Origin: an uncultured Acidobacteriota bacterium
GTDB taxonomy: Bacteria > Acidobacteriota > Vicinamibacteria > Marinacidobacterales > SMYC01
DNA length: 64,000 nt
Assembly (NCBI GenBank): GCA_963815675.1
Contig: CAWFHP010000006.1
Coordinates: forward strand, 448,360-512,359
Direction: 5' to 3'
Numbering within the stretch: position 1 is the first letter of the stretch; the number at the start of each line of letters is the position of its first letter. A model generated the notes under the pieces. It saw only the letters and a list, made by a program, of their open reading frames with translations, had not been told where the DNA came from and did not search any database. Positions 8,272 to 60,483 of the stretch are shown here, one piece after another. Both the position numbers and the translations under genes were made by a program.

Positions 8272-8347
8272 TGGTGAGCCGCGAAGGAATCGAACCTTCA
8301 ACCTACGGATTAAGAGTCCGTTGCTCTGCCAATTGAGCTAGCGGCCC
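8272..8347 (-). tRNA. tRNA-Lys (anticodon CTT)
   Basis: Manual fold. Acceptor GGGCCGC/GCGGCTC, anticodon loop CTCTTAA, T-loop GGTTCGATTCC, encoded CCA. Confidence 0.8.
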
Positions 8348-8367
8348 ACAGTAATGGCTTACGTGGC

Positions 8368-8444
8368 TGGTACGCCTGAGAGGATTCGAACCTCTGACCT
8401 TCTGCTCCGGAGGCAGACGCTCTATCCAGCTGAGCTACAGGCGC
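8368..8444 (-). tRNA. tRNA-Arg (anticodon CCG)
   Basis: Manual fold. Acceptor GCGCCTG, D-loop AGCTGGATAGAGC, anticodon loop CTCCGGA, T-loop GGTTCGAATCC, CCA. Confidence 0.8.
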
Positions 8445-11915: not shown

Positions 11916-14375
11916 TCAGTCGTAGCGGAGGGCGCGGATGGGCTCGATGGCCGCGGCGCGGCGAGCAGGCAGATACGTGGCGAGGGTAGCGACGGCGGTG
12001 AGGAAGAGCCCGACGGACGCGAACGTCACTGGGTCCGTGCTGTCGACTCCGTAGAGGATCGCCGACATCAGGCGCGTCGCGGCGAGAGCGCCGAGGGTGC
12101 CTATCGCGACCCCCAGAAGCGTCATGACGAGACCCTGTCGTACCACCATGCGGCTCACATCCGAGCGCGCGGCGCCGAGGGCGATGCGCACACCGATCTC
12201 CCTCGTCCTTTGCCCGACGATATATGAGATCACGCCGTAGATCCCGATGGACCCTAGAAAGAGCGCCACCCCCGCCGCTATGGCGAGAAGCATCATCGTA
12301 TAGCTCGTGCGCGCCAACGAACGAGAGAGGAGCTCGTTTCCGGTCCGGATGCTGATCAAAGGAAGATTCGGATCGAGCGACCAAACGGTGTCGCGCACCG
12401 ACGTCGAGAGACTTCCCGGCGAGACCGTCGACCGCAAACAGAGGGTCATGGTGCGCACGGCCCAATCGTCGTTGTCTTCGCCGAATCCGACGACGGGATA
12501 ATAGATCATCGGGCTCACGGGTTTTTCGAGGCCGTCGTCGTGCACGTCGCCGACGACGCCTACGATCGTGTACCAGTGGTTGATTTTCCGGGGAAGGCCA
12601 GGTGTGAGGCGTTTTCCGAGAGGGCTCTTTCCCGGCCAGAACGTCTCGGCGAGTCCGCGGCTGATCACGACGGCGCCCGTTCGCTCCTCGTGGTCGCGCC
12701 GCTCCAACGTCCGACCCTCCTCGAGAGGAATCCCCATCGCCTCGAAGTAGCCGGACGCCGCCCAGTTGGTGCGGACCACGGGCGGGAGCTCGCCCTCTCG
12801 AACGGGAAAATCTTCGAGGGCCATGCCGTTGTTGGAGTCCGAGCCACCCATGGGAAAATTGCGGATCGCCCCCACCCGGGAAACGCCCGGCAGGGCCCGA
12901 AGCTCGTCCATCAGCTTCTCGTAGAATCGCGCGGCATCGTCCGGCGTCGCATAGCTCGCCTGCGGAAGAGACAGGCGCACCGTCAGGAGATTGCCGGCCG
13001 TCCAGCCGGGGTTCACGTTGCGGAGCGACCAGAACGAGCGCGCCATCAAGCCCGAACCGACGAGAAGAACGAGGGCGAGGGCGACCTGGGTCACGACGAG
13101 CGCGCTGCGCACGAGATGAGTCTGTCGTCCGCTCGAAGCCCGGAGGCTACCCTCCTGGATTGCACGTACCAGATTCGGCCGTCGATACCGCGCGACGGGA
13201 ATGAGGCCGAAGACGAGACCCGCCACAAGTGAAATGGCGGCGGCGAAGGCGACGACCGGCGCGTGGATGCCGACCTCGTGGAGGCGCGGAATGGTCTCGG
13301 GGCTCATGGCGAGAAGCACCTTGAGCGCGGCGAAGGCGATGCCGATGCCGAGAATTCCGGCGAGAGTGGCGAGCACGAGACTCTCGGCGAGAAAGTGCCG
13401 CAGCAGGTCACGACGGCTCGCTCCCAGCGCGACCCGGAGGCCGAGCTCGCGCTGCCTTCCCTCGGCGCGGACGAGAAACAGATTCGCGACGTTGGCGCAG
13501 GCGATGAGGAGAACGACGCTCACCGTTCCCAGAAGGATCCAGAGCACGCGAGACACGTCTCCCACGACGTCCTTCATCAACGGCGTCACGAAGGCGCGGA
13601 GCTGGGCGTGCTCGAGGATCGCTGCGGTGAACTCGCCTGGATAGATGTCGGGGATGCGGTGTAGGAGACCGTCGAGCTCCGCGGTGGCCGATTCCGCCGA
13701 TACGCCGGGCTTCAGTCGGCCGATCCCCTCCTGGCTGAAGTTCACCTTGCCCAGGTCCTTCGGATCGATGACGTGGGGAATCCAGATCGCCGTCGTCTCA
13801 CCCGGGTAGGTGAATCCGTCCTTCATCACTCCGATGACCTGCCAAGGAGTTGCGTTGAGCTGAATCGTCCGTCCGACGATTCCAGGGTCCCCGCCGAAAC
13901 GGCTCCGCCAGAAAGAAAAACCGAGGATCGCGACCTGGGGCGCGCCGGGATCGTCCTCCGCCTCGTCGAAGGTACGACCGAGGAGAGGACGAACGGCGAG
14001 CGTCGGAAAGAGCGAGGCCGTGGCTTCGGCCACGTCGACCTGGGCCGGCTCTCCCACCCCGGTCAAATTCATCGAGTAGGGGCCCTCGGACAGCCCGACC
14101 CCTTCGAAGGACTGCGCGAGGTCGTGGTAGACGGTGTAGGTCGTGTCGGATTGCTGGACTTGCGGAAATCCGACGCCCGGCGCGGAGTGCCAGAGGCCGT
14201 AGAGCCTTTCGGGCTCGGGATAGGGTAGAGGCTTCAGGAGAACGCTCTGGACGATGCTGAAGATCGCGGTGTTCGCCCCGATCCCGAGGGCGAGGGTGAA
14301 GATCGCGACGATGCTGAATCCGGGCGTCCGGACGACTTTCCGCCACACGAGCTTCATATCGTTTCCCAGGTTCAC
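11916..14375 (-). CDS. ADOP-type ABC transporter permease (MacB-like periplasmic domain + FtsX, duplicated)
   Basis: Intact 819-aa ORF. N-terminus typical of Acidobacterial duplicated orphan permeases. Two FtsX-like 4-TM modules. Confidence 0.85.
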   Translation of the reverse strand: MNLGNDMKLVWRKVVRTPGFSIVAIFTLALGIGANTAIFSIVQSVLLKPLPYPEPERLYGLWHSAPGVGFPQVQQSDTTYTVYHDLAQSFEGVGLSEGPYSMNLTGVGEPAQVDVAEATASLFPTLAVRPLLGRTFDEAEDDPGAPQVAILGFSFWRSRFGGDPGIVGRTIQLNATPWQVIGVMKDGFTYPGETTAIWIPHVIDPKDLGKVNFSQEGIGRLKPGVSAESATAELDGLLHRIPDIYPGEFTAAILEHAQLRAFVTPLMKDVVGDVSRVLWILLGTVSVVLLIACANVANLFLVRAEGRQRELGLRVALGASRRDLLRHFLAESLVLATLAGILGIGIAFAALKVLLAMSPETIPRLHEVGIHAPVVAFAAAISLVAGLVFGLIPVARYRRPNLVRAIQEGSLRASSGRQTHLVRSALVVTQVALALVLLVGSGLMARSFWSLRNVNPGWTAGNLLTVRLSLPQASYATPDDAARFYEKLMDELRALPGVSRVGAIRNFPMGGSDSNNGMALEDFPVREGELPPVVRTNWAASGYFEAMGIPLEEGRTLERRDHEERTGAVVISRGLAETFWPGKSPLGKRLTPGLPRKINHWYTIVGVVGDVHDDGLEKPVSPMIYYPVVGFGEDNDDWAVRTMTLCLRSTVSPGSLSTSVRDTVWSLDPNLPLISIRTGNELLSRSLARTSYTMMLLAIAAGVALFLGSIGIYGVISYIVGQRTREIGVRIALGAARSDVSRMVVRQGLVMTLLGVAIGTLGALAATRLMSAILYGVDSTDPVTFASVGLFLTAVATLATYLPARRAAAIEPIRALRYD

Positions 14376-23923: not shown

Positions 23924-25783
23924 ATGAAGATGACTGCGCCGACCGACCGCCGCCGATTCTTGCGTACGAGCGTCATCGGAGGCCTCGCGTTGACGCTGTC
24001 CGGCAAACGCTCGGCCCAAGGAGCCAGTTCCGGGTCGTCGTGCCGGGAACCTCTGCTTCCTCAGGAAGCTCCCGACCCTCGCTCCCGTCTCCGGCAGCTC
24101 GAGAGGACACGCAGCCTCTATATCTACGATTACGAGCGAATTCCCTCGCTGCCCATGGTGGAAAAGGTGCCTCCCCCGGACGCGTTCTCGCTCCCGTGGC
24201 TCCTCCAGGCGGGAGATCGCGTGGGGGACCTCGTCCGAAACTTCACGACCAGGCCCGGCATGACGGGGGCGGTCGCTTGGCGTCGCGCCGCCGAGATACT
24301 CTCGCGCGGCGCCGAGCTCGACGCGGGCCGGCTACTGGATGTCGCACGGCAATCGGCGTCTGCTCGAACGGGGCTCGATCGCGATCGCCCCCAGAGCCTG
24401 GACGACTACGCGGCGCTGTTTCGAACCATCGAGCCGCCCGGAATCATCGAGACTTTCCAGGACGATCGTGTTTTTGCGCTTCAGCGCGTGGCTGGGCCCA
24501 ATCCACTGGTGATTCGACAGGTCGCCGGACTCGACGACCGGTTCCCGGTCACGGAAGCGATGTACCGCTCCGTTCTACGGCACGACCGGCTCGATGCCGC
24601 GGCCAAGGAAGGTCGACTCTATCTCGCCGACTATGGCCAGCTCAACGGCGTCGAGAGAGGATTCTACCGCGGAGCCCCCAAGTTCCTCTCCGCCCCGCTC
24701 GCTCTGTTCGCGGTCGATCGACGGACGGGCGAGCTCGTTCCGATTGCGATTCAGTGCGAGCAGGAACCGGGCCCCGACAATCCGATTCTCACGAAGGATG
24801 ACGGTCACGCCTGGTCGATGGCCAAGACCCTCGTCCAGATCGCCGACGCCAACCTGCACGAGGCCGTCAGCCATCTCGGTCGCACGCACTTGTTCATCGA
24901 GCCCTTCGTGATCGCCACCGAGCGTCAGCTCGCGGAGAACCATCCTCTCCGACTCCTCCTGCGACCCCACTTCGAGGGAACGCTCGCCATCAACGAGCTC
25001 GCCCACAGACAATTGCTGGCTCCCGGCGGATTCGTGGACGAGCTCCTCGCGGGAACGCTGGAAGCCTCCTTGAGGCTCGCCGTCGAAGGAATACGAACCT
25101 ACGCCTTCGACGAAGCGATGCTGCCGAAAGCACTTCGATCGCGCGGAGTCGACGACCCCGGCGCTCTCCCGAGCTACCCCTATCGCGACGACGCGCTCCT
25201 CTACTGGAACGCGATCCGCGCCTGGGTACGCGACTATCTCGGGATCTACTATCGATCGGACGCGGATGTGCGGGACGACTTCGAGCTCGCCGGCTGGTAT
25301 CGGGAGCTCGTCGCTGCCGACGGCGGTCGTGTCACCGGTTTCGGTCGGGGTGACTCCATCGGAGGTCTGGACGAGGTCATCGATGCCGCCACCCTCCTCG
25401 TTTTCACGTCGAGCGTTCAGCACGCGGCACTGAACTTCCCTCAGTTCGATCTCATGACGTACGTCCCCAACATGCCGCTCGCGGGCTTCGCCCCGGCGCC
25501 CGCGTCCAGGGACGCCGACGAGCAGGACTTTCTCGATCTGCTTCCACCGATTCCTTCCGCGCGTCTCCAGCTCGTGATTCTCTATCTGCTGGGAACGGTC
25601 CACCACACGACGCTCGGCATGTATCGGGAAGAGGAGCTCTGCGATCCCCGGCTCCGGCGACCTCTCGCGAAATTTCGACACGAGCTCGATCGGATCGGCC
25701 GAATCATCGAGCAACGCAACCGCGTCCGCCCGCCCTACCCGTTCCTCGAGCGCCAGGGAATTCCGCAGAGCATCAATATTTGA
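23924..25783 (+). CDS. Lipoxygenase (Tat-secreted, bacterial mini-LOX)
   Basis: Intact 619-aa ORF. Tat signal (RRRFLRTSVIGGLALTL). Exact LOX iron-site spacing H-x4-H-x4-H-x17-H-x8-H (HEAVSHLGRTH...NH...PH). C-terminal isoleucine (IPQSINI). Confidence 0.85.
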   Translation: MKMTAPTDRRRFLRTSVIGGLALTLSGKRSAQGASSGSSCREPLLPQEAPDPRSRLRQLERTRSLYIYDYERIPSLPMVEKVPPPDAFSLPWLLQAGDRVGDLVRNFTTRPGMTGAVAWRRAAEILSRGAELDAGRLLDVARQSASARTGLDRDRPQSLDDYAALFRTIEPPGIIETFQDDRVFALQRVAGPNPLVIRQVAGLDDRFPVTEAMYRSVLRHDRLDAAAKEGRLYLADYGQLNGVERGFYRGAPKFLSAPLALFAVDRRTGELVPIAIQCEQEPGPDNPILTKDDGHAWSMAKTLVQIADANLHEAVSHLGRTHLFIEPFVIATERQLAENHPLRLLLRPHFEGTLAINELAHRQLLAPGGFVDELLAGTLEASLRLAVEGIRTYAFDEAMLPKALRSRGVDDPGALPSYPYRDDALLYWNAIRAWVRDYLGIYYRSDADVRDDFELAGWYRELVAADGGRVTGFGRGDSIGGLDEVIDAATLLVFTSSVQHAALNFPQFDLMTYVPNMPLAGFAPAPASRDADEQDFLDLLPPIPSARLQLVILYLLGTVHHTTLGMYREEELCDPRLRRPLAKFRHELDRIGRIIEQRNRVRPPYPFLERQGIPQSINI

Positions 25784-45511: not shown

Positions 45512-45588
45512 TGGCGCGCCCGGTAGGGCTCGAACCTACGACCTACAGATTCGAAGTCTGGCGCTCTATCCAACTGAGCTACGGGCGC
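45512..45588 (-). tRNA. tRNA-Arg (anticodon TCG)
   Basis: Manual fold. Acceptor GCGCCCG/CGGGCGC, anticodon loop CTTCGAA, T-loop GGTTCGAGCCC, CCA. Confidence 0.7.
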
Positions 45589-45642
45589 GATCGAACCAAC
45601 AAACTATAAAGGAGCATGGAGCTGGAGACAAGGAGGCGACGT

Positions 45643-45718
45643 CTGGGGTGGGTGATGGGGCTCGAACCCACAACCACTGGAGCCACAGTCCAGTGCTCTA
45701 CCATTGAGCTACACCCAC
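45643..45718 (-). tRNA. tRNA-His (anticodon GTG) with an encoded G-1
   Basis: Anticodon loop CTGTGGC. Extra 5' G pairs with C73. CCA end present. Confidence 0.75.
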
Positions 45719-45731
45719 CGCAAGATCCCAT

Positions 45732-45808
45732 TTGGTACGCCAGGGAGGACTCGAACCCCCGACATGCGGCTTAGAAGGCCGCCGCTCTATCCACCTGAGC
45801 TACTGGCG
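45732..45808 (-). tRNA. tRNA-Arg (anticodon TCT)
   Basis: Anticodon stem GCGGC/GCCGC, loop CTTCTAA, T-loop GGTTCGAGTCC, CCA. Confidence 0.75.
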
Positions 45809-45843
45809 CACGAGCTTTCGCTCTGTTTCCTTCCAGTCCCCGT

Positions 45844-45922
<79 letters not shown>

Positions 45923-45962
45923 CGTGGAAACCAGCTATTATAGGGTTCTTCGAGCGCAGGCG

Positions 45963-55492: not shown

Positions 55493-56795
55493 ATGAATCG
55501 TCGCGACTTCTTCAAGCGGGCGGGAGCACTCGGGGCGTGTACGTTGCTCCGGCCACGCAGCGGCGAGTGGATTCCCGGGCGTGCGACGACCTTTCCCGAA
55601 GGCCCGGGGTTTCGGACGAAGCATCTCGTGACCATCCTTCTCGGAAACGGGGCCCGGCGCATCGACGTCATCGACAACCCGGCGCAGTGCCCTTTCCAGT
55701 CGAAGATGGCGGGGGAGGGAACCCTCTTCGTCGAGGACTACGGGGAGACGGTCAACCTCCACGGTTACATGTACAGCGAGCTCCTCACCGGCCGCGACGC
55801 GCCGTCCCAACGTCCCCTCTTTCCCACCTGGAACGAGTACGTTCGGAAAAAGACCGGCGCTCGCGCCTCCGACTTCTGGATGCTCCAGGGGGCTTCGTAC
55901 TACCGGGCGTGGGCCTGGGACGTGAAACATTTCAGCAATCATCCCGACTATGGCATTCGCTACGGCGCCACGAGCCTCACGATGTCCAAGCTCTTCGCGA
56001 ACGGTGGCAGACGCTCTCCCCGCGAGCTCTACGCTCTCAACGTCGAGCCAGGGCTCGGACACAGCGCGAGAGAGCGCGGGAGGATCGAAGAATGGATCGC
56101 GGACGTTCTCGCGAGTCGGTCGTACGAGCTCCCCTCGACGACGAGACCCGTCATCGAGCGTCCCTTCCCGATCGGCGACGCCCAGGCGATCGTTCTCGCG
56201 GGGAAGATTCCTCCGTGACTTCAAGCCGAAGATGGTCACGGTGCAGCTCCTGGCTCTCGATGACGCCCACTCCGATTTCGGCAGCGCGGGCGGCGAGACC
56301 GGATTCGAGACCTACCTGCGGCATCTCGGAGCGCTCGACGAGCTCATCGGGAGGCTATGGGCGGAGATTCAGTCGGATCCAGAACTGAAGGAGACGACCG
56401 CCCTCATCATCCGCCCCGAGTGCGGTCGCGACGAGGAGGTGGACCGATACGGACAGCTCGGCCACAGCCCCGGGGACGACCACGCGCACAGCGTCTGGAC
56501 GAGTGCCCTCGGTCCCGATTTCGAGAGGGGACGAGTCGTGCGGGAGCGCGTCGAACGGCGGGACCTGGCTCCCACCATCACGTATCTGATGAGCGGCGGG
56601 ATCGCTGAGTACGCCACCGGACACGTCCGGACGCAGCTCTTCCGGGACCCAGGCGGGATTCCCGCGTACATTTTCCCTTCCGTCGGCCGAGAGGCTAGAA
56701 ATGAGAAACGCGGTGGTGGTAGACTAAGAGTGCTATTATCGAGGACCCACGCCCAGTCGGCTCGGGCTCCGACTATCGAGGAGTACCAGACATGA
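55493..56795 (+). CDS. Tat-secreted DUF1501 (sulfatase/phosphatase-fold) family protein; apparent frame change near 56205
   Basis: Tat motif MNRRDFFKRAGALGA. C-terminal DUF1501-like block (IIRPECGRDEEVDRYGQLGHSPGDDHAHS...DLAPTITYLMSGG) lies in ORF 55950..56795. Confidence 0.55.
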
Positions 56796-57064
56796 AGGAC
56801 GATCTGACACGCCGAGACTTTCTGAAAGCCGCTGGACTCGCCGCCGCCGGTGTTGCCGGCGCCGCGGTCCTCTCCCGCACCGCCGGGGCGCAGGAGCAGG
56901 AACCGAAAAAGGACGCGGATCCGGAGCAGAAGAAAGACGACAAGCCGCCCGAGGACAGCACTCCGCAAGAAGAGACCCGGGCTTGCCCGCAGTGCGGCGC
57001 CCTCATGTACAAACAGGGCCGAACCTGGACCTGCGAGAACTGCGGATACAGCTACGTCGAGTAG
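56792..57064 (+). CDS. Small Tat-signal protein with a C-terminal CxxC...CxxC zinc ribbon
   Basis: MKDDLTRRDFLKAAGLAAAGVAGAA, a low-complexity Lys/Asp/Pro linker, then CPQCGALMYKQGRTWTCENCGYSY. Start overlaps the upstream stop. Confidence 0.55.
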   Translation: MKDDLTRRDFLKAAGLAAAGVAGAAVLSRTAGAQEQEPKKDADPEQKKDDKPPEDSTPQEETRACPQCGALMYKQGRTWTCENCGYSYVE

Positions 57065-57164: not shown

Positions 57165-57992
57165 TCAGGGCCGCGGAATGAAGAGGTGACCGATGATCAG
57201 AAACAGGATCAGGCTCGCGCAGAGCGTGAAGTGGGGAGCGGTCAGGCGCGGGTAGCGCCAGAGCCAGAACTTCCCTTTCGGTTCCCGACCGTTCATCGCC
57301 ATCCTTGCGTAGAGGATCCGCTGCACGCTGATGAGGTTGGTGAAGACGGTGAGTATCCAGAGGGTGATGTGGACGTTTCCCGCGAGCAGCCCGATGATGA
57401 TCGTAACCGTCCGCTCCGCCCGCTCCATGAATCCGACTTTGCACTCCGGAATGACGTTCTCCGCCCGGGCACGGATATAAGAGGTCGTGGCCGTCCCGGT
57501 CGCCGAAAATCCCCAGAGCACGAGGTAGAGCGTCCGCCCCGGCCCGTGAACGTACCGCAGCAGGTACATCAGGATGCCGAGCAGCATCAGGAAGTCGGTA
57601 TATCGATCCGTCACCGAGTCGAGGAAGCCGCCGAACGCGGTAGAGCGTCTCGAGATCCGTGCCACGGCTCCATCGAGCATGTCGAAAGCCCCGGCACAGA
57701 TGAGCACCACGCCCGCGAGCCACTGAACGCCCTGGAACATCGGCATGAACACGAGGGAAACGGCGACGGGACCGGTCAAGGTGACCGCGTTCACCGGGAT
57801 CCCCGCGCGGATGATGCCGCGGGCAATACTGTCTCGCAGGAAGCCGAAGACACCTGCCACCGCCTTCGAAAGAGCGATGGCGATCGAACGGAGGATCTCC
57901 CTCAAACCCGGTGGCTGCGGAAGAGTGCTCTCCTTGACGCCCAACTGTTCTCCTTTGGTGGAACGTGTCAAAACGCCCATGCACTTTACCAT
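57165..57992 (-). CDS. CDP-alcohol phosphatidyltransferase (phosphatidylinositol-phosphate / archaetidylinositol-phosphate synthase-like)
   Basis: Signature D-x2-DG-x2-AR...G-x3-D-x3-D reads FDMLDGAVARISRRSTAFGGFLDSVTDRYTD. Multi-TM. Confidence 0.8.
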   Translation of the reverse strand: MVKCMGVLTRSTKGEQLGVKESTLPQPPGLREILRSIAIALSKAVAGVFGFLRDSIARGIIRAGIPVNAVTLTGPVAVSLVFMPMFQGVQWLAGVVLICAGAFDMLDGAVARISRRSTAFGGFLDSVTDRYTDFLMLLGILMYLLRYVHGPGRTLYLVLWGFSATGTATTSYIRARAENVIPECKVGFMERAERTVTIIIGLLAGNVHITLWILTVFTNLISVQRILYARMAMNGREPKGKFWLWRYPRLTAPHFTLCASLILFLIIGHLFIPRP

Positions 57993-58120: not shown

Positions 58121-59045
58121 ATGCCGCTGGTGATCGTCAATCCTGCCTCTCGTGGAGGAGACGCGGCGCGGGACTGGCCCAAGGCCGCGGTCGCGCTCCG
58201 TTCCCATTTCGGCGCGTTCGAGTGCCGCTTCACCGAGCACCCGGGCCATGCGGTGCGCATCGCCCGCGAGGAAGCCGATCGAGGGCGAGCGCTCGTCCTC
58301 ACGTTCGGCGGCGATGGCACCATCTCCGAGACCGCGCGGGGAATTCTGGAATCGGGAAAGCCGGTGGAGCTCGGGATCCTGCCCCACGGAACGGGAGCCG
58401 ATCTCGTTCGCTCGCTCGCTCTTCCCACGAGGACGGCGGACGCTGCCCGGGCGCTGCAGGCGTGGAAAGACGGTCGCGATCGACGTCGGCCGCGTCGTCT
58501 TCGCCGACGGAGAAGAAAAGACCTTCATCAATTCCGCATCCTTCGGGCTCTCGGCGGAAGTCGCGCGGCGGATGAACGGGCGGGACCGCCGAAGCTACGC
58601 GACGGAAACGGTCCGGGCGGCGCTCGACTACGGTTTCCCCGAAGTCGCGATCTCCGTCGACGGAAAGCCGGGCCGCCGGCTGAGGGTCACCACCGTTTCT
58701 CTTCACAACGGACGCTTCTTCGGCGGCGGGATGAAAATGGCCCCGGAGGCGAGTGTCACGGACGGACGACTCGACGTGGTGGTGGTCAAGAAGATGCCAG
58801 TCACCCGGCTCCTTCGTCATGCCCCGCTCCTCTACGTCGGGGCGCACCTCGGGCTCGCGGAAGTGGAGCACGGTCAGTGCTCTCGGCTGGAAGCCTTCCC
58901 GACCCGTCCGGGAGAATCGATTCCGGTGGAAGTCGATGGCGAAGTGCATCGCTCCCTCCCCGCGATCTTCGAGGTCCGACCGCGAGCGCTTCGTTTGAGG
59001 ATTCCGTTCTTCGACGTCGCGAGTCATCGGACGGGCATGCTATAA
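58121..59045 (+). CDS. Diacylglycerol-kinase catalytic-domain lipid kinase (YegS/BmrU-like); apparent frame change near 58460
   Basis: N-terminal part (MPLVIVNPASRGG...TFGGDGT) in ORF 57965..59059. C-terminal part in ORF 58152..59045. Confidence 0.65.
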
Positions 59046-59046
59046 T
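59041..59046 (+). promoter_or_regulatory. TATAAT -10-like hexamer overlapping the lipid-kinase stop codon, ~190 bp upstream of the thrS-like ATG
   Basis: Exact TATAAT. No convincing -35 element was checked. Confidence 0.25.
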
Positions 59047-59174
59047 CCATTCGACATGAAGCTTCGAGGGACGTGGACGACCGGGCTCACTAGCGGGGCC
59101 ACGGCTCGTTCCATGCCTCGATAGCCGCGAGCCGTGGCCGCAACCCGAGAGGGCGGGCGACCACACGAGAAGTA

Positions 59175-59196
59175 GGCGCCTCCCGGCGCCTTTTTT
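59175..59196 (+). terminator. Rho-independent terminator-like hairpin (GGCGCC-TCCC-GGCGCC + T6), either the lipid-kinase terminator or the terminator arm of a thrS-like leader/attenuator
   Basis: Perfect 6-bp GC stem and U6 tract. A 12-bp perfect stem-loop (59096..59139) lies immediately upstream. Confidence 0.6.
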
Positions 59197-59234
59197 GTTG
59201 CCCTCCCCAATCCACGACCAAATGGAGGGAAATC

Positions 59235-60483
59235 ATGTCCGAGAACCATTCCGTCGAGCGTGAGCCGGGGCTCTCCCTCGACGATCATCGAAGAATCGGC
59301 CGCGAGCTCGACCTGTTCTCGTTCGCGGAAGCGGTCGGGCCCGGCCTCGCACTGTGGCACCCCAAAGGGGCACTCGTCCGTATCGGCCTCGAGGACTACT
59401 GGAGAAAGGAGCACCTCGCTCGAGGATACGATTCTCGTGTACTCGCCTCACCTCGGCCGGAGCACGCTCTGGGAGACGAGCGGCCACCTCGACTTCTATC
59501 GCGACTCGATGTACGCGCCGATGACGGTCGACGAGCAACGCTATTACGTGAAACCGATGAACTGCCCGTTTCACATGCAGATCTTCGCGTCGAGGCGTCG
59601 TTCCTATCGGGAGCTCCCCCTCCGCCTCGCCGAGCTCGGGACGGTCTATCGATACGAGCGAAGCGGTGTCCTGAACGGGCTGTTGCGTGTGCGGGGGTTC
59701 ACGCAGGACGACGCGCACATCTTCTGCCGCAACGATGAGGAAGGGGAGCTCGAAGAGGAGATTGCCGGAGTTCTGCGGTTCATCGTGGAGTTTCTCGAGG
59801 CCTTTCGCTTTCGGCGTCTCGCGTTCTCGCTGAGCACGAGACCCGAGAAATCCGTGGGAAGCGAAGCCCGCTGGGTCGCCGGGGAAGCCGCCCTGGCACG
59901 GGCGCTCGAGAGGGTGGGCCGCTCGTACGAAGTCGACGACGGCGGCGGAGCTTTCTACGGACCCAAGATCGACGTCCACGTCGAGGACGACCTCGGCCGT
60001 CCCTGGCAGCTCTCCACGGTCCAGGTGGATTTCAACCTGCCCGAGCGGTTCACCCTCGGGTACGTGGGCCCGGATGGTCGAGAGCACGTTCCCTTCGTCG
60101 TCCATCGGGCAATCTTCGGATCGCTCGAGCGCTTCTTCGCCATCCTCGTCGAGCACTATGCCGGCGCATTCCCCCTCTGGCTCGCTCCGCTCCAGGCCCG
60201 CGTCCTTCCCGTGGCCGAGCGGCACCAGAAACGAGCGAGAGACGTCGAGGAGCTCCTCCGGCGCGAGGAGCTTCGGGTGGATGTCGACGCGCGAGGTGAG
60301 CCGCTGGGCGCGCGGGTGAGGGACGGCGAGCGCGAGAAAGTTCCCTATCTCGTCGTCATCGGCGATCGAGAGATCGCTTCCGGCTCGATCTCCGTCCGGA
60401 AACGGGGCGGGTCACCGAGCGAAAGCGTCGAGCTTGCACCCTGGATCAGCGCGGTCGCGGAAGAGCAGCGGAAGAGGCTTTGA
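59235..60483 (+). CDS. Truncated threonyl-tRNA synthetase (catalytic + anticodon-binding domains only, no N-terminal TGS/editing domains); apparent frame change near 59425
   Basis: Starts at [14 protein letters not shown], the first motif of the class II core. Core motifs in ORF 59260..60483 (FRDSMYAPM; [13 protein letters not shown]; GPKID; HRA) plus a C-terminal anticodon-binding domain. Confidence 0.7.

Follow-up and report, generated by a model that had tools for sequence, protein, structure and literature searches.

The stretch of DNA analysed here, 64,000 nucleotides (nt) of contig CAWFHP010000006.1 from an uncultured Acidobacteriota bacterium (hereafter the window), carries toward its end a gene for a short threonyl-tRNA synthetase (ThrRS), thrS-short, together with a structured leader. 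The leader occupies the 189 nt between the stop codon of a lipid-kinase gene (59045) and the ATG of thrS (59235), in line with the ~190 nt given in a preliminary description of this DNA. It contains a small Thr-rich upstream open reading frame (uORF), two hairpins that share a strand and an intrinsic terminator, and is proposed here to be a leader-peptide attenuator that controls the synthetase. The features of the locus, in window positions, are listed below (SD, Shine-Dalgarno).

59235..60483, + strand: thrS-short, ThrRS catalytic core and anticodon-binding domain; 415 aa after removal of one T at 59433/59434
59038..59046, + strand: extended -10 element TGCTATAAT, overlapping the lipid-kinase stop codon (59043-59045); its TATAAT is 59041-59046
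59056..59124, + strand: uORF (thrL-like leader peptide), 22 codons; ATG 9 nt past the -10 box, TAG at 59122-59124 in the loop of hairpin P2
59071-73 (ACG), 59077-82 (tandem ACG-ACC), 59089-91 (ACT) and 59101-03 (ACG), + strand: candidate regulatory Thr codons, 5 in 22 codons
59061..59125, + strand: hairpin P1 (segments 1:2); 5' strand 59061-59088 with the early Thr codons, 3' strand 59096-59125 including the P2 5' arm
59097..59139, + strand: hairpin P2 (segments 2:3); perfect 12-bp inverted repeat with arms 59097-59108 and 59128-59139 and a 19-nt loop
59155..59164, + strand: segment 4, GGGCGACCAC; alternative partners are segment 3 (59134-59141 with 59157-59164) or the terminator 5' arm (59172-59181)
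59174..59197, + strand: intrinsic terminator AGGCGCC-UCCC-GGCGCCU followed by U6 (terminator scan; inverted repeat I5)
59198-59206 and 59224-59232, + strand: anti-SD UUGCCCUCC paired with the thrS SD region GGAGGGAAA (inverted repeat I3)
58121..59045, + strand: YegS/DAGK-family lipid kinase gene, the upstream neighbour, frameshifted at about 58415-58465

The ATG at 59235 starts a ThrRS-like frame that ends at 60483. In the window this frame is broken, with residues 1-66 in one frame and the remainder in another, by a +1 frameshift that the preliminary description had overlooked: an extra T in GATTCT at 59433/59434. A JGI contig that is 96% identical over 2.7 kb (L090; L-numbers denote homologous or compared loci and P-numbers proteins from the protein search) lacks exactly this T and encodes an intact protein of 415 aa (P0121), which agrees with the repaired window protein across the frameshift junction. 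Because this closely related contig holds the intact frame, the frameshift is most likely an assembly indel rather than the mark of a pseudogene. The repaired product scores 518 bits against TIGR00418 (cut-off 384) over model positions 171-562, matches ThrRS chains in the PDB at E about 1e-107, and aligns with residues 240-635 of E. coli ThrRS and residues 241-640 of S. aureus ThrRS. Pfam recognizes only tRNA-synt_2b (PF00587, 8e-41) and HGTP_anticodon (PF03129, 2e-17, residues 320-408). The zinc-ligand motifs of the window protein, MNCPFH, DDAHIF and VVHRAI, align with the corresponding motifs of E. coli ThrRS, in which the active-site zinc ligands are Cys334, His385 and His511. By its sequence, the window enzyme is an active-looking ThrRS core.

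The earlier statement that this synthetase is a catalytic core without the N1 and N2 domains is borne out. The match to TIGR00418 begins well inside the model, no Pfam match to the TGS (N1) or editing tRNA_SAD (N2) domain is present in the repaired product, and the frame upstream of 59235 is closed by a stop codon and bears no similarity to an editing domain. There is also no room for N-terminal domains, since the lipid-kinase gene runs to 59045. A corrected sequence had been suggested as a way in which an N-terminal editing extension might come to light; repair instead gives the 415-aa frame. No match to an editing domain was found anywhere within the 64-kb window. A possible editing-domain remnant in the leader, suggested by a tblastn alignment that reached into 59121-59234, was rejected, as real similarity is absent there.

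The short form is shared by many homologues. In a protein search, about 50 clusters with lengths of 392-444 aa matched the window ThrRS at 63-82% identity, and the next matches are full-length enzymes with a tRNA_SAD domain at no more than 61% identity. In a neighbour-joining tree, the short ThrRS form one clade, apart from every sampled full-length group including that of the Acidobacteriota. A scan of contigs with the window protein returned at least 80 loci, and all 80 among the matches listed are full-length ThrRS with at most 61% identity. Based on these comparisons of sequence, the lack of N1 and N2 is judged to be genuine and not an artefact, and the enzyme to belong to a conserved clade of 392-444-aa ThrRS. 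One further protein of similar length, P0105 (427 aa), was rejected as a short ThrRS: L089 has a scaffold-gap run of N at 1285-1294, and an editing domain is encoded just upstream. Lists of truncated synthetases drawn from metagenomes by length accordingly need to be checked for scaffold gaps.

The short enzymes also differ in composition from their full-length relatives. Thr makes up 1.9% (8/415) of the repaired window protein and 1.2-2.8% of the short ThrRS as a set (window 59235-60483, L001, L002, L083-L087, L091, L093, L096 and L097), whereas the corresponding part of 81 full-length ThrRS has 3.7 +/- 0.7%. The Ser content is higher in the short enzymes (6.6% vs 4.1% in the full-length forms).

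All 19 readable short-thrS loci have the leader. The TATAAT box noted earlier at 59041-59046 has a counterpart in each of them: a TGnTAnAAT-like box lies at the same position in 19/19 leaders, whichever gene is upstream, with TAAACT and TACTAT as variants. No -35 box was recognized, and a full sigma-70 scan gave no -35/-10 pair. By its sequence context, transcription would start a few bases past the -10 box. In 19/19 leaders an ATG or GTG follows this box by 6-9 nt and opens a frame of 21-33 codons, and there is no SD sequence between the -10 box and the uORF start in any of the 19. A start codon this close behind a -10 box, with no SD sequence, implies leaderless initiation. The uORF stop codon falls inside the P2 loop in 18/19 leaders. 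The exception is L104 (2829-2930), in which the uORF has no stop in the P2 loop, crosses the P2 3' arm and ends at a TAA 9 nt beyond it (33 codons); there, a terminating ribosome would cover segment 3, and the geometry of an attenuator would differ.

This uORF, absent from the earlier account of the leader, is here its conserved core. Thr accounts for 5/22 codons in the window uORF, compared with 5.2% Thr in other window ORFs (binomial P = 0.005), and every one of the 19 leader peptides contains 3-6 Thr; homologous examples, each followed by a stop codon, are MVVRGILKTTTGLTMWAAARRVP, MAVVFRTQTTTGLTRGAAARLLS and MVFGSHTMSRLTTWAAARRVI. The bias is specific to the frame, as ACN triplets number 3-6 in the uORF frame and 0-2 in the other two frames (15/15 leaders tested). 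Insertions of 9 nt in the hairpin loop of L091, L099 and L102 keep the frame, and a codon that lies between Thr codons changes at each of its three positions with no indel. Variants of the uORF comprise 6 synonymous and 22 non-synonymous changes; such a lack of obvious purifying selection on the peptide would be expected from constraint that acts on the frame, on the Thr codons and on RNA pairing. Every lineage preserves the start, the frame, the enrichment in Thr and the place of the stop codon. The leaderless geometry and the frame-preserving indels are indirect signs that the uORF may be translated.

Conservation of the leader is pronounced and specific to the short synthetase. In the intergenic alignment, the block at ~59066-59197 is almost identical across the first homologues, whose proteins share only 80-82% identity. 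A pattern derived from this block matched 13 sites in the metagenome collection. The whole motif is present at nine of them, eight directly 5' of a short thrS and the ninth on a contig that stops before the gene; the remaining four lack the other parts of the motif and are chance matches. Within the window the motif is found a single time, and it is absent at 80 full-length thrS loci, upstream of which only chance-level candidates for Thr-rich uORFs were found. The leader is also present in L083, L084 and L105, where something other than the lipid-kinase gene lies upstream (a gene for a SnoaL protein, a divergent peptidase or a fragment of a kinase), and it is therefore not merely the lipid-kinase terminator. 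Scans with Rfam 15 left the leader unmatched, both for the window and eight homologous loci at the gathering threshold and for 58900-59400 at E <= 10; the scans gave only tRNAs and spurious sub-threshold matches to models of terminator-containing small RNAs. The leader is a genuine cis-regulatory element, conserved and able to adopt alternative structures.

Hairpin P1 has a minimum free energy of -36.5 kcal/mol and a z score of -4.26 in the window, where 0/200 shuffled sequences fold as well; in L087, z is -5.1. The first segment, the 5' strand of P1, contains the Thr codons at 59071-59082. The apical pairs are conserved; ACUAGCG forms the apical loop. For the outer 9-15 pairs, 10 lineages use different sequences, which are complementary in each lineage, for example GCUUCGAGG/CGUGGA in the window, UUCGGAUCGCAC in L087, GGCAGU/CAGGA in L105 and AGCGA/GGCAC in L104. 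Among the sequence comparisons, this rebuilding of outer P1 gives the strongest support for a real structure. Hairpin P2 corresponds to the 12-bp perfect stem-loop seen previously, which is present as described. Its folding energy is -30.1 kcal/mol (z = -3.0), and it is nearly invariant in 15 leaders, with G-U-compatible changes only and no double-sided covariation. As both hairpins use 59097-59108, P1 and P2 are mutually exclusive.

Downstream of P2, folds of sub-sequences show segment 4 pairing with segment 3 when the latter is free and with the terminator 5' arm when P2 is locked. Both pairings are found in 5/5 terminator-type leaders, including L001, in which segment 4 has a different sequence; on these models, segment 4 would couple the upstream hairpins to the terminator. 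The GGCGCC/GGCGCC-U6 terminator itself had also been recognized before and was recovered at 59174-59197, 129 nt past the lipid-kinase stop codon. The region 58700-59500 has two terminator-like sites, this one among them, against a mean of 0.5 in shuffled sequences. Terminator arms with GGCGCC are present in six leaders (the window, L090, L001, L002, L084 and L105), and a U-poor form is present in L086. In L087 the exposed segment 3, GUGGCCGC, pairs with GCGACCAC, directly after which a U-run follows. In this modelled arrangement, the 3:4 hairpin and its U-run are a textbook terminator with P2 as the antiterminator, and the dependence is direct. The window has the same 14-mer as L087, GGGCGGGCGACCAC, but it is then followed by the separate GGCGCC hairpin and U6. 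The last structure of the leader is the anti-SD/SD pairing; CCCUCC...GGAGG pairs recur in most homologous leaders.

The leader combines a conserved uORF, Thr enrichment, alternative P1 and P2 hairpins and a terminator, and we propose that it works as a leader-peptide (ribosome-mediated) attenuator, with charged tRNA-Thr as its signal and the N1/N2-less ThrRS under its control. A rough probability of 0.65 is assigned to this reading. The mRNA would begin at or next to the ATG at 59056, and the 22-codon uORF would be read as a leaderless message. When Thr-tRNA is scarce, the ribosome would stall within the P1 5' strand, at the Thr codons 59071-59082; a stall with ACC (59080-82) in the A site would cover the RNA to about 59092 and leave the P2 5' arm free. 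In this stalled state, 59097-59108 would pair with 59128-59139 and P2 would form, segment 4, left without its partner, would hold the terminator 5' arm (59172-59181) and so serve as an antiterminator, and polymerase would read into thrS. When Thr-tRNA is plentiful, the ribosome would reach the TAG (59122-24), cover about 59107-59134 and block P2. The 3' half of segment 3 would then be exposed and pair with segment 4, the GGCGCC hairpin with its U6 would form, and transcription would stop. Termination would likewise be expected where there is no translation, for example in read-through from the lipid-kinase gene, as P1 (-36.5 kcal/mol) outcompetes P2 (-30.1 kcal/mol). The downstream anti-SD/SD hairpin may add a translational layer. 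The sensor half of this model is well supported; for the output half, we infer the relay from the folds described above.

Several points weigh against the attenuator. The Thr codons are few and not always in tandem (L085, L093), and the L087 uORF has only three (P = 0.09). Leaderless initiation in this lineage is an assumption drawn from the position of the start codon, and P2, being invariant, has no support from covariation. With regard to the alternative terminator/antiterminator folds that had been envisaged earlier, the relay through segment 4 can be folded in all five terminator-type leaders, but the 3:4 and 4:5 complementarity is no better than that of shuffled GC-rich sequence (p = 0.06-0.6), and thermodynamics favours the terminator in each of the states modelled. 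As the terminator wins at equilibrium, antitermination could only be a kinetic effect. A U-tract terminator is missing from many homologous leaders, which carry anti-SD/SD pairings instead, and in equilibrium modelling SD accessibility showed no consistent difference between the modelled on and off states. Finally, the loci are related, so that counts across them are not independent.

Some of the same observations could be accounted for if the leader were a translation-independent sensor RNA (a degenerate T-box, a riboswitch or a ThrRS-bound operator of the kind found in E. coli thrS) and the uORF a by-product. The nucleotide conservation of the leader is far above that of the coding region, changes in the uORF do not favour the third codon position, and GAGGGCGGGCGACC loosely resembles a T-box sequence, by inspection only. 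However, the T-box model RF00230 gave no match in 58900-59400 even at E <= 10, and no other family gave a credible one, which agrees with the earlier remark that no canonical T-box is visible. By inspection, UGGN is missing from most leaders; the P1 apical loop is not anticodon-like, and CGU occurs in the P2 loop of some lineages only. A T-box, an anticodon mimic and a pseudoknot were each considered through UGGN, the CGU loops and CUAG-CUAG pairing, and were rejected, none of these being conserved across lineages. With respect to an E. coli-type thrS operator, whose hairpin next to the SD mimics the tRNA-Thr anticodon arm, no conserved 7-nt loop with NGU was seen by inspection, and the SD-adjacent hairpin is the anti-SD pairing. 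A sensor RNA would moreover leave the start position, the frame-keeping indels, the stop position and the in-frame ACN bias of the uORF unexplained, and is regarded as improbable. Of the forms of control raised in the preliminary description, attenuation is the one that the conserved Thr-rich uORF and the alternative hairpins favour, whereas T-box-like logic, a riboswitch and a ThrRS operator find no counterpart in Rfam or in a UGGN or anticodon-like loop.

It is also conceivable, but unlikely, that the uORF is translated and responds to something other than Thr-tRNA, through general translation or coupling, an arrest peptide, or a leader RNA or peptide that acts in trans. For rnTrpL/peTrpL of Sinorhizobium, an attenuator leader and its peptide are described as acting in trans (PMC6614838, PMC7298713). 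The small number of Thr codons (3-6 per uORF), the conservation of an 11-residue core of the leader peptide and the terminated leader itself, predicted to be a stable RNA some 140 nt long, are consistent with such a role. Against it, Thr is the sole residue that is consistently enriched, and the enrichment remains while the positions shift between lineages; the gene that follows the uORF encodes a Thr-specific synthetase that is itself poor in Thr; and roles in trans are compatible with attenuation in cis. Far less probable is the proposal that the hairpin and terminator serve only to end the transcript of the lipid kinase, all else being chance and thrS a decaying pseudogene. The position of the terminator behind the kinase stop codon and the frameshifts of both the lipid kinase and thrS in the window would fit this proposal, and a plain lipid-kinase terminator without an antiterminator alternative had been named earlier as a way in which the leader might be explained away. 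The leader is nevertheless kept before the short thrS genes of L083, L084 and L105 with their other upstream neighbours, homologues that do have the kinase upstream are often without a terminator (L085), the extra T of thrS is missing from the 96%-identical contig with the intact ORF, and the members of the clade are 63-82% identical with intact catalytic motifs.

Leader-peptide attenuation by which the window element is proposed to act is a known class of mechanism. The pheM-pheST operon of E. coli is a leader-peptide attenuator system of an aminoacyl-tRNA synthetase operon. Like the window element, it has a short uORF enriched in the cognate codon before the synthetase, alternative hairpins and an intrinsic terminator. 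It concerns another amino acid and is unrelated in sequence; pheM has a normal ribosome-binding site, whereas the window uORF is apparently leaderless, and in the window, unlike in pheM-pheST, the terminator is a separate hairpin downstream of 3:4 and is followed by the anti-SD hairpin. To our knowledge, leader-peptide attenuation of synthetases is an old idea with few documented cases, mostly from enterobacteria and actinobacteria. A closer parallel in gene content comes from Streptomyces lividans TK24, in which a leaderless thrL (MKRVRPFLETTPGFVPAR, followed by a stop codon) was predicted from RNA-seq upstream of thrS, and similar leaderless peptides precede leuS, trpS and alaS (PMC8079986). 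The S. lividans arrangement shares with the window a leaderless short ORF with tandem Thr codons directly 5' of thrS and a hairpin after it. It differs in that thrL contains only 2 Thr, a U-tract terminator is unreported, and the thrS is actinobacterial and annotated simply as threonine-tRNA ligase; the window element has 3-6 Thr, an explicit P1/P2 alternative and a canonical terminator, and a detectable sequence relationship between the two is absent. In mycobacteria, ribosome stalling on polycysteine leaderless AUG/GUG uORFs senses amino-acid supply, according to a preprint (bioRxiv 10.1101/834739). These uORFs resemble that of the window in being leaderless, in lying at the 5' end of an operon and in sensing the supply of a single amino acid; they differ in sensing Cys and in having other downstream genes, and are described there as acting on operonic gene expression.

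Other ThrRS genes reach a comparable end by different means. In Bacillus subtilis, thrS and thrZ have T-box leaders, and thrZ is a back-up copy induced on shortage; E. coli thrS has a translational operator. In these systems, as in the window, a structured 5' leader couples ThrRS expression to the charging of tRNA-Thr or to the level of ThrRS. The window leader has neither a T-box nor an anticodon-arm mimic, and sensing is proposed to occur through the translating ribosome. The enzyme likewise has partial counterparts. E. coli ThrRS delta-N (PDB 1EVL/1EVK) comprises the same domains, and the window protein aligns with it end to end (E = 7.5e-107); delta-N is an engineered fragment, whereas the short form of the window is a natural bacterial clade. 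Engineered E. coli ThrRS without the editing domains mischarges serine. The crenarchaeal ThrRS-cat/ThrRS-ed pair has the same domain content in its catalytic member but is archaeal and includes a free-standing editing protein, none of which was found in the 64 kb of the window. In Anabaena, a second ThrRS with poor or no editing (T2) is induced in low zinc and its products are edited in trans by apo-T1; an engineered T2 delta-N has no editing activity (PMC4787780). T2 is a second ThrRS with poor or no editing that is expressed only under a particular stress, but, unlike the window enzyme, it retains a degenerate N2, and its induction is by low zinc. No description of a natural bacterial ThrRS without N1 and N2 was found in the literature searched, and the reviews among it do not list one. 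New here are an element family absent from Rfam and without sequence kinship to known attenuators, the lineage in which it occurs, and its strict tie to a natural N1/N2-less bacterial ThrRS.

With regard to the role of the short ThrRS, an auxiliary enzyme induced by Thr shortage is favoured over a sole housekeeping ThrRS. The auxiliary role is preferred because the Thr content of the protein is half the usual; a low content of the cognate residue is expected of a protein made when its aminoacyl-tRNA is limiting, and fits the attenuator. The less favoured reading, still a serious possibility, is that the short form is the only ThrRS of the lineage, with fidelity secured by an unlinked trans-editing factor, by better discrimination in the active site or by tolerance of errors. 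In its favour, the clade is stable, keeps its synteny and retains every catalytic and zinc motif, and it forms its own deep branch and is not a recent duplicate of a neighbouring full-length type. Control by attenuation would not contradict a housekeeping role, as the housekeeping pheST of E. coli is itself under attenuator control. On the other side, short thrS is not linked to infC, unlike canonical thrS (for example L037), and the depletion of Thr suggests expression under shortage. The sampled acidobacterial ThrRS are full-length and only 49-56% identical, and the window carries an ADOP permease typical of Acidobacteriota. Finally, a mis-acylating ThrRS is apparently selected against as a housekeeping enzyme in cyanobacteria (PMC4787780). 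As to the resistance or auxiliary copy suggested in the preliminary description, no second thrS, free-standing editing protein or biosynthetic or antibiotic gene cluster was found within the 64-kb window.

The neighbourhood of the short thrS is partly conserved. The order CDP-alcohol phosphatidyltransferase, lipid kinase, short thrS is kept in part, and synteny with the lipid kinase is found in L001, L002, L085, L086, L087 and L104, though not in L084 and L105. The lipid-kinase orthologues in L001 and L002 are intact, whereas the window copy is split between two frames; the indels in this gene and in thrS suggest that the assembly has indel errors and that other window ORFs may be broken. The CDP-alcohol phosphatidyltransferase gene (57165-57992, - strand) is divergently paired with the lipid kinase, a pairing kept in several homologous loci. 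Its best scores are to archaetidylinositol-phosphate and phosphatidylinositol-phosphate synthase models, below their cut-offs, and the two genes may form an inositol-phospholipid gene pair. A 90-aa ORF (56792-57064, + strand) has a twin-arginine-type signal and a C-terminal CxxC...CxxC zinc-ribbon-like end, and small ORFs of similar size occupy its position in L001 and L086. In the leader types that have no terminator, the gene after short thrS belongs to the DinB_2/MDMPI_N family (L083 6209-6700, L085 6185-6655); it overlaps the thrS stop codon in L083 or starts 6 nt after it in L085 and is thus probably co-transcribed with thrS.

Elsewhere in the window, a 619-aa ORF (23924-25783, + strand) contains a strong lipoxygenase domain (PF00305, 5e-56), which is uncommon in bacteria, and the ADOP-family duplicated permease mentioned above lies at 11916-14375 on the - strand (TIGR03434, 909 bits). 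Two tRNA clusters are present on the - strand, Arg(TCG)-His-Arg(TCT)-Pro at 45512-45924 and Lys(CTT)-Arg(CCG) at 8272-8444; no tRNA-Thr gene was found within the 64-kb window.

For annotation, these results mean that the structured leader is to be described as a small ORF with an attenuator, and that the frameshifted thrS is not to be called a pseudogene. The element appears to combine leaderless translation, a multi-hairpin relay and a hairpin that sequesters the ribosome-binding site, in an uncultivated lineage. If the short ThrRS is induced under Thr-tRNA shortage, it would provide a testable system for the trade-off between fidelity and charging capacity, and would allow a test of whether a low content of the cognate amino acid is adaptive in rescue synthetases. 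A broader proposal, tentative and on balance doubtful, is that the lineage uses an editing-domain-less, Thr-poor ThrRS, either as its sole or as its starvation enzyme, which a leaderless Thr-codon attenuator switches on when Thr-tRNA is scarce. If this is true, Ser-for-Thr mistranslation would be tolerated or exploited under Thr limitation, or would be corrected by an unrecognized trans-editing factor.

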